Source: Syntrophales bacterium (GTDB taxonomy: Bacteria > Desulfobacterota > Syntrophia > Syntrophales > UBA2210). From it: a stretch of 64,000 nt of DNA. Numbering within the stretch: the stretch's first letter is position 1; the number at the start of each line of letters is the position of its first letter. Below are positions 42,001-48,000 of the stretch, piece after piece. The stretch is from NCBI GenBank assembly GCA_963662405.2, contig CAXXKT010000002.1:96001-160000 (forward strand). The letters run 5' to 3'. Position numbers: made by a program.

Positions 42001-45000
42001 ATCCGAATTTCAGATCATTTGAGTATATTCAGAAAGCGCCGGACCTCGGGGTCATCTCCGCCCCCTCTACGTGAGCGACATCCTGCGGGGTTCAGGCGAA
42101 CCCCCCGCGCATGGATCAGCCCTTTGTGATCGGGTCAGTAGAGATCGGCATCGGCCGCGTTCCCCAGGTCTCGGCATCTCTCCGATGGATCGACCACTGG
42201 GGCACAATCAAGGCACGGGCAGGGATCAACCGGATGCGCTACACCGTTGATCCCGGTCTCTACGCACTGGGAAATCCCGACACCGAGTCGCCGGTCCTCG
42301 TCACGGCAAACTACAAACTGAGTTTCGACAGCCTCCGTTCCGCCCTCCCCGGCCGCGATGCCTGGATCCTCGTCCTCGACACAAAGGGGATCAATGTCTG
42401 GTGCGCCGCCGGGAAAGGGACCTTCGGGACGGCCGAACTTGTCGCACGCATCCAATCGAGCAGGGTTGACCGGGTCGTTGCCCACCGCACGATTATCCTG
42501 CCCCAGTTGGGCGCCCCCGGAGTCGCCGCGCACGTCGTCAAAAAATTCGCCGGGTTCTCGGTCCATTACGGCCCCATCAGGGCAACGGACCTGGGACGAT
42601 TCCTCGATGGAGGGATGCAGGCGACTCCCGAGATGCGTATCAAGACCTTCACTCTCGCGGAGCGGGCGGTCCTGATCCCCGTCGAGCTGGTTCTGTCGCT
42701 CAGAGCGGCTATCATCGTCGCACTGGCCATCATCCTCATCTCCGGTCTGGGAGGTCCCGGGACCTATGGACAGAATGTCCTCTCGTACGGCATCTTCTTT
42801 TCTACCGCCCTCTTCAGCGGTGTCTTTGCCGGGGCCGTGCTGACCCCCCTCCTCCTCCCCTATATCCCGGGGCGGGCCTTTGCGCTGAAGGGGTTGCTCA
42901 TCGGCCTGGTCACCGCCGTGATCCTCCTTTTTTTTCGGAGCCCCGATATGGCGCGGTGGGCGGACCGTCTTGAGGCCCTCGCGTGGTTTTCCCTGGTCCC
43001 CGCCGTGGCGGCGTACCTGGCAATGAACTTTACCGGCGCCTCGACCTATACCTCGCTGTCGGGCGTTAAAAAAGAGATGCGATGGGCCCTCCCTCTGGAA
43101 ATAACGGCCGGAGGAGCAGGAGGCCTGCTCTGGCTGGGATCACGCTTTATTGTATAGGAGTCTATGATATGACACGGTTCAGGTATCTCAAAAATGTGAC
43201 TACCCTGATGCTCGATGAAGAGAAGTGCATTGGATGCGGCATCTGTATGGCCGTCTGTCCCCACGCGGTCTTTAATATGAACGGCGGTAAGCGTATTCGG
43301 ATCGAGGATCGCGACGCCTGCATGGAGTGCGGGGCCTGCGCACTCAACTGTCCGGCTGAGGCGTTGTCGGTAGAGTCGGGCGTCGGCTGCGCCGCAGCGG
43401 TCATCAACTCGATGCTCGGCGGAGGCTCCGCCACCGGGTGCTGCTGCAGCGTCGAACCCGACGAGGGCTCCCGTGCCTTGAAACGCCCGAGCTGTTGCTG
43501 AAATGTGTTGCGATCGATGGATTTGTATATATTCGACTTAGGTAACAATGCTCTGCCAATGCATCCTCTCGTGCTTCCTCTGCATCCCGCGATGTGGAAG
43601 CGTCCGCCGTCAACACGGAATAGTGAATCAATCGTCATCGGTCACAAAGGAAGTGAGGTACGACCAGTGAATCTGAAAGACAAGTATGCCATTGTCGGTG
43701 TGGGGTATACCCCCCAGGGGCGGGTCCCGGACAGGACGACGCTGAGTTTTCACCTCGAAGCCTGCGCCGACGCCATTGAGGACGCGGGGCTGAAACCCGG
43801 TGATATCGACGGCCTGATCGTCTATCGTCACTTTATCCCGCCGACGGGAGAATCGGATGTCGCCCCCTACGACGTGGCGCAGCACCTCGGACTGTCGCCG
43901 ACCTTCCTCGCGCAGGACGCCAACTGATCGCGCAGCCACTTACAGCACGCAGTTGGCGCGCTCGAATCCGGTCTTTGTAACTATGTGCTCCTTTCATACG
44001 CCCACTCGGGAGACAGCATGTTCCGCATGCTCACGGAGATGGCGGGTGATGCGGCCGCCTTCGGCCACTTCGGGGCGTCCGCTGGATACGCCCTTGCCGC
44101 GCGGCGCGCCATGCACGAATTCCACACGGGACCCGACACCTGGAAACAGATCGCCGTGGGACAGCGCAGATGGGCCAATCTCAATCCGCGGGCGGTGATG
44201 CATGCCAAGCCGATGACATCCGAAGATTACTATAACGCGAAGTGGCTTGTCGAACCCTTCCGCCTCCCCGATAACTGTCTGGTCAACGACGGCGGTCGTG
44301 CCTGTATCATCACGACGGTTGAGCGGGCGCGTGATCTGAAACAGCCCCTCGTCACCATCATGGGGATGGGGCAGCACAACCCCTCGACGGCCTTTCAGCA
44401 GGCCACCTATCTGGCGGGACCGACCGGCGCCCGGCAGGCACGCGAAACCGCCTTCAGGATGGCGGGGATCACCCTCGACGATATAGACGCCTGCGAGATC
44501 TACGACTGCTTTACCTATACCGTCGAGATCACCCTCCAGGACTACGGCTTCTTCGGCCCCGGCGAGGGAGAGAACTGGTTCTCGGGAGGAACGATCGAGC
44601 CGGGGGGACAAATGCCCGTGAACACATCGGGCGGCCAGTTGTCCGAGGCGTACCACATGGGGCTGACCCCCCTTACCGAGGGGGTGATGCAGCTCATGAG
44701 ACGGTGCGGGGAGCGGCAACTCGGCCCCGCGACGGACACAAAAGAACCCGAGATTATCCTGTGCAGCGATAACGGGGCCATACTGCAGACACATTCCTGT
44801 TATGTCCTGAGGAGGTGGTAACCATGACGTCATACGAAAAACCCCTGCCGCAGATCAATGCCGACACGAAAGAGTTCTGGAACGGGTGCAGAGAGCACCT
44901 GATAAAGATGCAGAAATGCGGCGATTGCGGAACACTCCGCCTGCCCCCGTCATTCCTCTGTCCCCGTTGCCATTCCCGGAACACGGACTGGATCGCCGCC

Positions 45001-48000
45001 ACGGGAAGGGGGTCGATCTATACCTTTACCGTCAACCATGTGGCCTTTCACCCGGCCTTCCAGGAAGATCTTCCCTATGTGGTTGCGGTCGTGAAACTGG
45101 ACGAGGGTCCGCACCTGCTGACGAATATCGTCGGCTGTGACCCGGCCGCGGTGCGGTGCGATATGCCCGTGGAGGTCGTCTGGGACGATGTGACCGATCA
45201 GTTCAGCTTGCCAAAGTTTCAACCGGTCGTGTAGGATACATGATCTGCTTGTTTACGAGAGATGTACAAACCGTTAGGAAACCTGGGCTGCCATGACCGA
45301 CATACACCCCAACCGGTTTTATCTGACCTCCACCGGGAGGCTGGCGCGCGACCTCACCCGTCGCTTCCGTCTCCAGTGCCTGCGCGAAGAGAAAGAGGGA
45401 TGGGAGCCCCTCCGGGCAATGAGCCTGAACGCCTGGCTCACGCTGACCTGGACCGAATCGTGGCCCGATAAGATCCCCGCTCCTGATCTGTACCGGATGA
45501 ACCTCTGGAAGGAGATGGCCGACCGGATCGCGCCCCCTCCCTCACTCGTTGCGGACACGAATCTCTGTGCCATCCTCGACGAGACCTACGGAATCATGGC
45601 GCGTCACGGGATCGAACCATCATCCGGTTTTCCCTCCACCCCCCTCGTCGAATGGCGGCGCGAGATCAGTGGGGTTTTTACCCGATCGCTCGAATCGGAC
45701 GGGCTCTTCCATCCGTCGCTTCTTCCGCTCTTGATACGCCGGGGGATAATAGACGGCAGGATCTCCCTTCCTGAAAAGATCACACTCGCCGGCTTCGAAT
45801 TCCCCGCCCCCCTGGAGCGGGATCTGTTCGCAATACTTGAGAAATACAGTGATGTCACATGTGTCATTTCCCCAGATCGCCGTCCTGAGCGTCTCGAGGC
45901 CCTGGCCCTCCCCTCTCCCGAACAGGAGGTGATCTATCTCGTCCATCGCCTCGTCCGGGATGCTCAAACGATCCCCCTTCACCGGATCGGCGTGATCGTC
46001 CCGGACATGGATCGGTACGCGAAGCATCTGGAGGGGGCCCTCAGGGATGTGACAGCCCAGGCTCCGCCCCACGGCTCTCACTGGTTCAACGTAACAAAGG
46101 GGGTTGCGCTCCTCGAGACGCACCTCATGCAGGCGGCCCTTCTTCCCCTGCGCTTCATCATCGAAGGGCAGCCCCGCGAGCGGCTCCTCTCTCTTTTCCT
46201 GTCCCCCTACTACGGATACTCACAGGGGAGGCGGCACGAGATCGCACGCGCCGACATCTCCTGGCGAAAGCGCTCCCTCGATTTCGGCCTCGACAATCTC
46301 ATGGCGGCGCTGAAGAGAGAAGATCCCCATACCTACGCCCTCATCCCCCCGGATATGCTCGACCATCTCTCCTTCTTCTGCCACAGTGAAGAGATAGGGA
46401 ATCAGAGACGGGGGTCCTTCTGGTTGGGACAACTCAGGGACCTGTGGACCCGCCTTGGCTTCCCCATCCTCGCGGACGAAAAGGATACCGTCGATAAAAG
46501 AGCCCTCGAAGAGATCACGGATGAGATCGACCGCCACCTCTCCCATACGGGGATGGATGGCCATGAATTTTCAGGTTGGCTGACATACCTCGCCTCACGG
46601 AAGACGGTGCAGACCGGCGCCGCGGAGGACGCCGGGATACAGGTTATGGGCATGATCGAATCGCGGGGCCTCGATTTTGACAAGGCGTACGTCCTCGGGA
46701 TGGACGACCGATCGCTCCCCGAACCGGCACGCCCCCTCCCCTTCCTCGATTCGACGGAGAGAAGGCTGGTCCAGGGGGGAACGGCACAGAGCCAGTACGA
46801 GTTCGCTCGTCGGTCCATAGACCACCTCATGACCTGCGCTCCGGATATCACCCTCCTCCGTGCCGAGCAGGAAGACCTCAAGCCCCTCCCTCCCTCCCCC
46901 TTCTGGCCGGGCGACAGCGACACGCGCTCTATCGATATCTGGAACACCCCCGATCCGGCCTGGTTGCGGGCCGGATGGCTCGACTCTTCCCATAAAGGAA
47001 TACATGAGAGAATATCGCCTGAACAAATGACAGAAGGACCTCTTGATCCAAGCATTATCCCCAGGACCGTCTCGGTGAGCCGGCTCCAGACGGCGGTCAC
47101 CTGCCCCTACCGCTTCTTTATCGAGAGCGTCATTAAGGTCGAACCGCTGGAGGATATCGAGGCGGATGCCTCCCCCCGCGAAAGAGGGACCCGAATACAC
47201 CGGGCCCTGGCTCTCTTTACGCAGAGGCTGAGAGAACGGGGGGTGGACCTGGGCAGCGACGAGGCGCGCACCCTCCTGACGGCCTGTGAGGATGAAACAC
47301 TCCAGAGTGTAGCGAATAAGCCACACTGGGCGGTGGAACAGAGGCGCTGGATCGGGGACAGGGACGATCCGGAGGGAGGCGGAATCCTCTCCGAGTGGCT
47401 CGACCGCGAAAGGACGCGCTGGACCGGAGGGTGGCGGTGCGTTGCCGAGGAGACCCCTTTCGACGCCCTCGCGATTCCCGGGCTCCCCTTCACCCTGCGG
47501 GGAAGAATCGACCGGGTGGATTTCAGCGACCAGGAGGGGTTCCTCCTCTGGGACTACAAAACGGGCGCCGTTCCCTCGCGTGCGGATATCGTCACGCGCC
47601 TGAAGGAACCCCAGCTCATTATCTATCTCATGGCGCTCCTTGGCGGCCATATCGCCGCCCTGGGTGACCGGATAGACGCGAATGTGCCTTTTTCGGCCGG
47701 GTATGTCCGTCTCAAGTCAGCCGGCGATATCGCCATCTCTCCGATCAAGGGGATCGAGTCCTCCCTGCAGGAGTGGCACACGGCCCTCGCCAAACTGGGA
47801 GCAATCCTGGGATCCGGTGATTTTCGGCCCGAACCCTTCCCCGTTTCGGGAACCACCGGGAGGGAGAAGACCTGCGAGGAATGCCCGTTCATAACCCTGT
47901 GCCGTGTGGGAATACGAAGCCGGCGCGCGTCGGAAACGGAGGAGACCGATGAAGGAACCGAATGACGCCGCCCAGCGTACCGCCGCCCTCGACACGACGC

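Follow-up and report, generated by a model that had tools for sequence, protein, structure and literature searches.

The nearest described sequences and structures to the protein analyzed here are 4u4e and two steroid side-chain retro-aldolases, Sal of Comamonas testosteroni (9myr) and Ltp2 of Thermomonospora curvata (6ok1). Sal and Ltp2 carry a Gly at the nucleophile site within a full-length loop, and their DUF35 partner is joined to a hydratase, by fusion or by linkage. Further relatives are the SCP2-type and archaeal DUF35-associated thiolases (6esq, 7yvy, BbsB 7pxp, and zebrafish 6hsp) and the Friedel-Crafts acyltransferases PhlC and MucB (5m3k, 9vbo). Both acyltransferases have a DUF35 subunit and an Asn before the nucleophilic Cys, and lack the HDxF His. 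For PhlC, passages of PMC6392133 describe an Asn87-Cys88 pair of which Cys88 is acetylated, an active-site Tyr298 and a DUF35 subunit. Passages of PMC12960953 report that a His-to-Tyr change in the HDxF motif of a DUF35-associated thiolase nearly abolished thiolysis, and identify loss of this His as the mark of the change from thiolase to acyltransferase.

Catalogued bacterial selenoproteins have an in-frame UGA, a downstream SECIS and Cys homologues, as does the family described here. To our knowledge, nearly all characterized selenoenzymes perform redox or metal chemistry. Where Sec takes the place of a conserved Cys, the residue is usually catalytic. A Clostridium kluyveri thiolase was reportedly found in the 1980s to contain selenium, in the form of selenomethionine and not Sec. 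The Cys homologues of the GxUxG family form an acyl-thioester. This predicted glutamine amidotransferase-like family is the nearest chemical precedent listed among the 119 prokaryotic selenoprotein families of PMC13188914, and a thiolase-fold family is absent from Table 1 of that paper, as a first-pass annotation of the locus had stated. The family described here would thus bring a new fold to this catalogue of prokaryotic selenoproteins.

The window analyzed is a stretch of 64,000 nucleotides from a Syntrophales genome, and contains the following features.

43667..44821, + strand: predicted thiolase-fold selenoprotein gene, 384 aa with one UGA read through; two calls under table 11
43823..43828, + strand: Tyr53-Arg54, invariant in the family and absent from the Gly-bearing sister protein
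43925..43927, + strand: in-frame TGA at codon 87, predicted to encode a selenocysteine in the loop that connects strand 80-84 to helix 91-101
43931..43933, + strand: Arg89, invariant, two residues past the Sec/Cys and found in 0/132 outgroup rows
43945..43961, + strand: predicted bacterial SECIS hairpin GCACGC-AGTTG-GCGCGC, its loop beginning 23 nt past the UGA with G as second base
44501..44512, + strand: YDCF motif with Tyr279 and Cys281, matching catalytic Tyr302/Cys304 of aldolase Sal; HDCF in SCP2-thiolases
44651..44653, + strand: Tyr329, in place of the GHP histidine; corresponds to catalytic Tyr344 in aldolase Ltp2
44768..44770, + strand: Asp368, two positions ahead of the Gly in the C-terminal active-site loop; specific to the family, most outgroup rows having Gly here
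44824..45234, + strand: DUF35/ChsH2 gene, 136 aa, PF12172 and PF01796, Cys4 zinc ribbon and OB fold

The thiolase-fold gene starts with GTG at 43667, with GAGGT 8 nt upstream, and ends with TAA at 44821. The TGA at codon 87 (context DAN-U-SRS) is the sole internal one of this single open frame of 384 codons, which joins the calls g02775 and g02776 as had been proposed. In databases, members of the family are carried as truncated fragments, the downstream part of the gene standing there as a protein of 264-267 aa, and ESM Atlas matches for the enzyme are ‘thiolase family’ clusters only. The earlier count of codon 87 was reproduced exactly: the 81 loci of the GTDB set (the window locus and the best 80 of 160 confirmed relatives) comprise 55 TGA, 14 TGT, and 12 TGC forms, and their alignments contain no further stops. 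A metagenome set (the best 80 of 440 relatives, possibly overlapping the GTDB set) has 74 TGA and six TGY forms, also without other stops, and the halves before and after the UGA diverge to an equal degree. Taken over both sets, with their possible overlap, codon 87 is only ever TGA or TGY (161/161 loci) and never TAA, TAG or Trp. A reassigned genetic code was rejected since 13 of the 55 TGA-form genes terminate in TGA themselves.

The hairpin reported to follow the UGA in the Sec forms (GCACGC-AGTTG-GCGYGC among relatives) was found again, with at least five of six stem pairs kept in 55/55 TGA forms versus 4/26 Cys forms. A bSECIS was defined by a loop of 3-9 nt, a stem of 4-16 bp, a G in the first two loop positions, a distance of 16-37 nt from the UGA and an MFE <= -7.5. 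The hairpin in the window falls within these limits (5-nt loop AGUUG, 5-6 bp, 23 nt, -7.5 kcal/mol for +13..+45). The energy limit is passed by 52/55 TGA forms, but the energy test alone is also passed by 14/26 Cys forms. With the 12 nt beside the UGA left out of folding, the stem forms in 54/55 TGA versus 5/26 Cys forms; this omission was decided after the full 51-nt stretch that starts at the window's UGA had folded into a different stem (z = +0.46, stem probability 0.01). The five stem-forming Cys forms all sit within the Sec clade of the tree. Among 93 four-fold sites in the TGA forms, the three under the strongest synonymous constraint are those of codons 95-97, and no compensatory changes were found in the stem, which is nearly invariant.

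The source genome contains selA, selB, and tRNA-Sec (selC), as previously listed, together with four fdh genes with TGA. Its selD consists of two overlapping frames at C3:552135-553065, the gene being split in this assembly by a frameshift that may be an assembly error or a real break. Among TGA-form genomes 51/53 have selA, compared with 17/26 Cys-form genomes (Fisher p = 5e-4). The restriction of the codon to TGA or TGY, and the hairpin and selA that track the TGA forms, support the proposed selenoprotein family; its reported distribution over Desulfobacterota is supported as well. Judged from these genomic patterns, UGA87 is almost certainly read as Sec via SelB and the hairpin.

The DUF35/ChsH2 gene starts 2 nt past the stop of the thiolase-fold gene. 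Its placement after that gene, previously noted in fewer loci, extends to 79/81 loci, in which it lies directly 3′; one of the two exceptions is a contig end. Its product is presumed to be an accessory subunit, and from synteny and homologous complexes we infer that the two gene products bind each other. Acyl-CoA ligase, dehydrogenase, and hydratase genes recur as neighbors, but no orthologous neighbor besides DUF35 was found among 45 lineages, and steroid genes are absent from the surroundings. In contrast to that of Sal and Ltp2, the DUF35 protein is stand-alone and has no conserved hydratase neighbor. In the window, the gene sits after hgcA-hgcB, of which hgcA bears its own conserved TGA. 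A functional link to hgcAB was rejected as local synteny, found in 5/81 loci that all belong to one clade.

The selenoprotein shares with Sal and Ltp2 the fold, the DUF35 partner and 29% identity. Aldolases had been noted among the closest structures, and indeed 4u4e, Ltp2, and Sal occupy the top VIA rows (Z of 44.5, 44.3, and 44.0), tied with thiolase 6esq (43.8), these being ranges and scores only. A complete aldolase residue set is present (Tyr279 of YDxF with Cys281, as in Sal, or with the second Tyr, Tyr329, as in Ltp2). The selenoprotein differs from them in having Cys/Sec, no Gly-Gly and a three-residue deletion in the nucleophile loop, and Arg54, Arg89, and Asp368 set it apart. With SCP2-type and archaeal thiolases it has in common the fold, DUF35, the Cys of xDCF and the acid-x-x-Cys/Sec of the nucleophile loop. 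The earlier assignment to SCP2-type thiolases is supported only in part: HDCF is YDCF (Tyr in 81/81 loci, Cys retained), GHP is EAY (Tyr329 in 80/81 loci), both His thus being Tyr, and the protein nests among Gly-bearing aldolase-like proteins. The CxS motif reads U-S-R, with U/C87 on its Cys or at +2, depending on the alignment.

This ambiguity arises because the stretch that holds U87 lacks three residues relative to thiolases and aldolases alike, which allows U87 to fall either on the nucleophile or at +2. Against Cys-thiolases, U87 aligns on the nucleophile and D/E84 on the acid at -3. The reported match to the EAAC cysteine of archaeal thiolases is seen in this comparison with a 2-residue gap, whereas the nearest relatives place U87 two residues past the nucleophile site. 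The claimed catalytic-nucleophile position is therefore alignment-dependent in its exact register, but by sequence residue 87 is predicted within the nucleophile loop under either alignment. In the predicted model (mean pLDDT of 76 for block 81-90, below 50 for 322-330), U87 lies three residues beyond strand 80-84, and the loop that holds it replaces the helix start; in the model of the sister protein the helix begins at the Gly site. The profile alignment to classical thiolase spans residues 205-286 only. In the MAFFT alignment it is Cys366 instead of Asp368 that faces the CxG cysteine of classical thiolase, and the equivalence of Asp368 consequently rests on the Gly anchor and the Asn of SCP2-thiolases.

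In the tree, the family nests within a clade with Gly at the nucleophile site (108/123 relatives), and Gly-bearing proteins separate it from the SCP2-type and archaeal thiolases. Comparison with outgroup rows indicates that Cys/Sec87, Arg89, Tyr53-Arg54, and Asp368 were gained together. By this reconstruction, the nucleophile loop of the ancestor lost three residues and acquired Cys87 with Arg54, Arg89, and Asp368, after which one sub-clade switched from Cys to Sec, with several reversions. The family thus appears to have regained a reactive residue after its loss in the ancestors. The path from Gly over Cys to Sec, with a SECIS hairpin persisting in reversions, is an unusually clean record of active-site rebuilding.

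Our best reading, with a probability of about 0.5, is that residue 87 evolved anew as a covalent nucleophile and forms an acyl-selenoester. The two-gene module would encode an enzyme of thiolase fold, derived from Gly-bearing aldolase-like proteins, together with its DUF35 subunit; SelB would recognize the hairpin past UGA87 and insert selenocysteine. Sec87 would attack the carbonyl of an acyl-CoA, and we infer that residue 87 is acylated in this way. The acyl-selenoester would permit thiolase-type C-C cleavage or formation, and Cys281 would act as the acid/base, its role in SCP2-thiolases and Sal. In place of the two histidines that were lost, Tyr279 and Tyr329 would donate hydrogen bonds, while the low pKa of Sec and Arg89 would take over histidine activation. 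The newly gained arginines suggest an anionic substrate. In favor of this reading are the alignment of U87 on the nucleophile of Cys-thiolases, its modelled loop position, the joint gain of Cys/Sec, Arg89, Tyr53-Arg54 and Asp368, and the recurrent acyl-CoA ligase, dehydrogenase and hydratase neighbors. Against it stand the +2 placement given by the nearest relatives, the aldolase residue set, the presence in this family of the HDxF Tyr described in the passages of PMC12960953, the hairpin that shows no compensatory changes and competes with another fold of the window's 51 nt, the frameshifted selD, and the finding of no conserved pathway neighbor. Slightly more tentative is the full proposal of a natural acyl-selenoester enzyme that makes or breaks C-C bonds and whose nucleophile was lost (Gly), re-invented (Cys, in a rebuilt active site), and upgraded to selenium. 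Selenium may then carry acyl groups instead of electrons. If true, an acyl-carrying Sec in a thiolase fold bears directly on why cells pick Sec over Cys, natural Sec/Cys pairs, which exist at 85% identity, could test what selenium adds, and syntrophic and sulfate-reducing bacteria would have a non-redox use for selenocysteine in their acyl-CoA metabolism.

The main competitor, which we regard as unlikely, is a Sal/Ltp2-type retro-aldolase acting on 3-hydroxyacyl-CoA via Tyr279/Cys281/Tyr329. Here Sec87 would lie in the loop without being acylated, and would polarize the substrate or trap the aldehyde product as a selenohemiacetal. The closest sequences and structures, although tied in VIA Z with 6esq, point to such an enzyme, as do YDCF and Tyr329, which match experimentally tested aldolase residues, and U87 at +2 in the nearest-relative alignments. 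A hydratase gene is close by in 6/45 lineages, but across lineages these hydratases share only about 33% identity. Moreover, the oxyanion Gln161 of Sal corresponds to Ala137, and an aldolase needs no residue at this site (Gly in Sal and in most relatives), yet Cys/Sec is kept throughout, at the cost of recoding. Even as a retro-aldolase, the protein would represent a new family of selenoproteins, whose active site differs from that of every tested superfamily member.

It is improbable that the protein is a PhlC/MucB-type acyltransferase, in which Sec87 is acylated and the acyl group, instead of undergoing thiolysis, is passed to a small acceptor other than CoA (C-, N- or O-acylation). As far as the PhlC passages (PMC6392133) go, Asn86-Sec87 and Tyr279 parallel Asn87-Cys88 and Tyr298, again with DUF35, and loss of the HDxF His agrees with the mark described in the passages of PMC12960953. 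However, no PhlA/HMGS-like third subunit was found near the gene, DUF35 being the only conserved adjoining one. PhlC also retains His347 where the selenoprotein has Tyr329, and is a remote match (E of 4e-15 versus 2e-80 for 4u4e); identity to PhlC and MucB is about 20%.

Still less probable is an enzyme that is aldolase-like in all other respects and uses Sec87 as a redox switch or to bind a metal or metalloid. Catalogued selenoproteins are mostly redox or metal-binding, the family has further invariant Cys (C104, C204, C276, and C281), and the window gene follows hgcA-hgcB with its TGA-containing hgcA; on the other hand, there is no CxxU or CU motif at Sec87, and the hgcAB adjacency is confined to a single clade. 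It is very improbable that the UGA terminates translation, in a split gene or pseudogene, or encodes another residue, since the downstream fragments in databases and the frameshifted selD are outweighed by the exclusive TGA/TGY codon without further stops, the equal conservation of both sides, the hairpin and selA that go with TGA, and the use of TGA as terminator in some of the TGA-form genes. A contig of run X1, possibly the source sample, covers the codon-87 TGA without difference.

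The gene in the window is thiolase-fold and spans 384 codons. The surrounding features are:

41501-42022, MarR regulator gene, upstream of hgcB
41994-43157, + strand, hgcA (NF040863), with an N-terminal extension holding a TGA at 42072-42074 and a hairpin after it
43169-43501, + strand, hgcB (NF040864), model match
43667 (GTG) to 44821 (TAA), + strand, thiolase-fold gene with one internal TGA
43925-43927, + strand, in-frame TGA (codon 87, DAN-U-SRS), splitting the gene into two ORFs under table 11
43945-43961, + strand, predicted bacterial SECIS hairpin, kept in TGA forms
45293-51314, + strand, AddAB/RecBCD-like nuclease-helicase pair (PD-(D/E)XK and UvrD), directly downstream and ordinary

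The first-pass annotation joined two calls into one gene read through UGA, and this TGA is indeed the sole internal stop in the frame. It also occurs, with zero differences, in a contig of run X1, possibly the source sample. The read-through protein matches the Thiolase_C_1 domain; no NCBIfam model reaches its cut-off, PRK06158 coming nearest with 247 of 421 bits, and no selenoprotein model matches. A DUF35/ChsH2 gene (136 aa) begins 2 bases 3' of the stop codon. Previously described after the thiolase-fold gene in 23 of 23 loci, it follows directly in 79/81 loci here (best 80 of 160 GTDB relatives plus the window). All four zinc-ribbon cysteines of its product are invariant in 39 aligned sequences.

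Comparison of relatives indicates that UGA87 almost certainly encodes selenocysteine. The first set of 81 loci (best 80 of 160 confirmed GTDB relatives, plus the window) has TGA in 55, TGT in 14 and TGC in 12 at codon 87, reproducing the earlier tally of 55 TGA and 26 TGY. The second set (best 80 of 440 metagenome relatives, with the overlap with the first set still in the counts) has 74 TGA and 6 TGY. No other in-frame stop was found in any alignment of either set. Amino-acid-changing codon differences are at 0.30 on the 5' side of the UGA and 0.28 on the 3' side (20 sampled TGA forms), with similar values in Cys forms; a true stop at codon 87 is highly improbable. A reassigned genetic code was ruled out, since 13/55 TGA-form genes also terminate in TGA.

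The hairpin reported 3' of the UGA in Sec forms was recovered, with at most one of its 6 pairs lost in 55/55 TGA forms vs 4/26 Cys forms of the 81-locus set. Its loop and stem, the G in the loop and the spacing all fit the published bacterial SECIS model (PMC13188914). Of 93 four-fold sites, codons 95-97 inside the hairpin carry the three highest synonymous constraint values among TGA forms (1.00, 0.85 and 0.84, against a median of 0.46); Cys forms show no constraint there. No compensatory changes were seen in the stem. The window's 51 nt from the UGA favour a different stem (z = +0.46; hairpin stem probability 0.01). Without the 12 UGA-adjacent nt, a stretch reasoned to be ribosome-covered and chosen after the unfavourable 51-nt fold, the stem forms in 54/55 TGA vs 5/26 Cys forms. 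The latter five are loci L001, L009, L011, L032 and L080; L001 carries Cys in the thiolase-fold gene, yet the adjacent hgcA retains its TGA and selA is present in the genome.

selA was found in 51/53 genomes with a TGA form vs 17/26 with a Cys form (Fisher p = 5e-4, the genomes being incomplete and related). The window's genome encodes selA, selB and tRNA-Sec, in agreement with the first-pass annotation, along with four TGA-containing fdh genes. Its selD, already noted as a split call, lies in two frames on contig C3 (G000:C3:552135-553065; loci L082, L083), broken near 552577-552581 by an assembly error or a real break, and itself contains a TGA.

Judged by its residues, the family is not a standard thiolase. 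Among solved structures, its sequence is most similar to the uncharacterised 4u4e, followed by the retro-aldolases Ltp2 (6ok1) and Sal (9myr), all ahead of any thiolase; by structure these three tie with the archaeal thiolase 6esq. The earlier label of SCP2/Ltp2-type thiolase holds for the fold and fails for two of the SCP2-thiolase motifs. The SCP2-thiolase motifs, CxS, HDCF and GHP according to passages of PMC7682436, are present in paralogues in the window's genome, whereas in the family (best 80 of 160 plus the window) the HDCF site is YDCF in 81/81 and the GHP site is EAY, with Tyr329 in 80/81. In a DUF35-associated thiolase, the HDxF His-to-Tyr change nearly abolished thiolysis (passage of PMC12960953). 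Based on passages of PMC12329534, Tyr279 and Cys281 match catalytic Tyr302 and Cys304 of Sal, and Tyr329 matches catalytic Tyr344 of Ltp2; the nucleophile site of Sal is occupied by Gly, and the family has Cys/Sec in that loop.

U87 is in the nucleophile loop; whether it falls on the nucleophile position, as claimed before, depends on the alignment. From the pre-strand Gly to the post-helix Gly, the family is 3 residues shorter than thiolases and aldolases alike. With Cys-thiolases as the reference, U87 lands on the Cys and D/E84 on the acid of E-x-x-C in both HMMER and hhalign, with a 2-residue gap after U87; with the nearer Gly clade as the reference, a single 3-residue gap opens before U87 in both hhalign and MAFFT, and U87 then falls at +2. 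The AlphaFold model (pLDDT 83.5) shows a strand at 80-84, coil at 85-90 and a helix at 91-101, vs a helix starting at residue 89, adjoining the Gly90 site, in the sister protein P0003 (pLDDT 92.3). Therefore, the helix start appears unwound in the family, with Sec in the replacement loop. It is somewhat more likely than not that U87 fills the nucleophile's place in space.

The Cys/Sec of the family is, from sequence relationships, a new gain. A profile search listed 150 representatives, 132 of them outside the family with 300-480 aa; among those of the 132 that keep the helix-end anchoring Gly, the nucleophile site is Gly in 108/123 and Cys in 0/123. A 31-row tree (motif columns excluded; quick search; rooted on three Cys-thiolases, one long-branched; the acyltransferase PhlC and the thiolase BbsB left out) recovers the family as monophyletic (SH-aLRT 99) with Gly-bearing P0003 as sister (99), both nested in more Gly-bearing rows and separate from Cys-thiolases (97). 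Tyr53, Arg54, Cys/Sec87, Arg89 and Asp368 vary little or not at all in the family, including its deep members P0004 and P0006 (also P0007, for the sites it covers), and are lacking in P0003. Asp368 sits 2 residues before the loop Gly, the spacing that the CxG Cys has in classical thiolases, and its counterpart in SCP2-thiolases is the Asn; MAFFT instead pairs Cys366 with the CxG Cys. The protein representatives P0003-P0152 reflect a very large uncharacterised thiolase-like clade that bears Gly and Tyr and has 1003 representatives at E <= 1e-30; its members are annotated as thiolases but lack the nucleophile.

Within the family tree (81-locus set), the earliest branches are 15 Cys forms, 12 of them Chloroflexota, and one clade (96) holds all 55 TGA forms plus 11 scattered Cys forms. 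At least 8 Cys/Sec changes are needed, 3 of them forced by starred branches. The hairpin-folding Cys forms all fall inside the TGA-form clade (5/5), as would be expected for reversion from Sec. Three members nested in Desulfobacterota are labelled otherwise (L014, Bacteriovoracaceae, TGA; L080, Chthoniobacter, Cys; L044, Pseudomonadota, TGA), through either transfer or mis-binning. L011 has a partial second gene copy (10360-10656; query residues 285-383, 85% identity) 3 kb 3' of the full copy.

Beyond the recoding signals, fold, residue set and history documented here, we infer acylation of Sec87. An aldolase chassis already cleaves the acyl-CoA C2-C3 bond, with the xDCF Cys protonating the enolate, and a nucleophile added near the C3-oxygen binding site would restore thiolase-type chemistry. 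The tyrosines would be hydrogen-bond donors, and a selenolate beside Arg89 would need no His. We give this regained chemistry, with Sec87 as acylated nucleophile, a probability of roughly one in two. An aldolase with a non-acylated Sec would share the catalytic residues of Sal, but not its Gly, and is rather unlikely. PhlC-type transfer to a small acceptor, which would also involve a DUF35 subunit (parts of PMC6392133), is improbable, and a redox or metal role for Sec87 is more doubtful still.

This is a real selenoprotein family that appears to be missing from the catalogues, and its active site has been rebuilt. The first-pass annotation found no thiolase among catalogued prokaryotic selenoproteins, and the 119 families in Table 1 of PMC13188914 include no thiolase-fold entry; 'thiolase', 'aldolase' and 'DUF35' are absent from its text. 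'Thiolase' is likewise absent from the portions covered of the BSepDB main text, the deep-Sep text with four supplements, SelCysML and the Haft and Gwadz preprint, and paper searches at the level of titles and listings, outside subscription literature, returned no Sec thiolase. Public entries of the clusters looked up are mostly fragments of 264-267 aa named 'thiolase family protein' or 'acetyl-CoA acetyltransferase'.

By record title, most TGA forms among the best 80 of 160 GTDB relatives belong to Syntrophales, Desulfobacterales and unplaced Deltaproteobacteria. Besides DUF35, no neighbour is conserved across 161 loci in 45 lineages (best 80 of 160, best 80 of 440, and the window; the domain scan of first-set neighbours covered 136/149 flanking ORFs). 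The commonest by lineage are acyl-CoA ligases (8 of 45), acyl-CoA dehydrogenases (7), enoyl-CoA hydratases (6), sigma-54 activators (6) and short-chain dehydrogenases (5), with 33-45% identity between lineages. They give a weak hint of acyl-CoA metabolism, because such gene families abound in these genomes; the window's genome has ten classical thiolases.

In the window, the module sits 3' of hgcA-hgcB, which mark a potential mercury methylator; the same link occurs in 5/81 loci of one clade. The hgcA TGA and hairpin are kept in 5/5 loci holding the gene, with the motif (P/S)-T-U, whereas known HgcA selenoproteins have a CU motif (Haft and Gwadz preprint) and no Cys adjoins U here. In L035, L072 and eight further loci of two lineages, the module has a nearby gene of the C-GCAxxG-C-C family, for which Sec forms are known.
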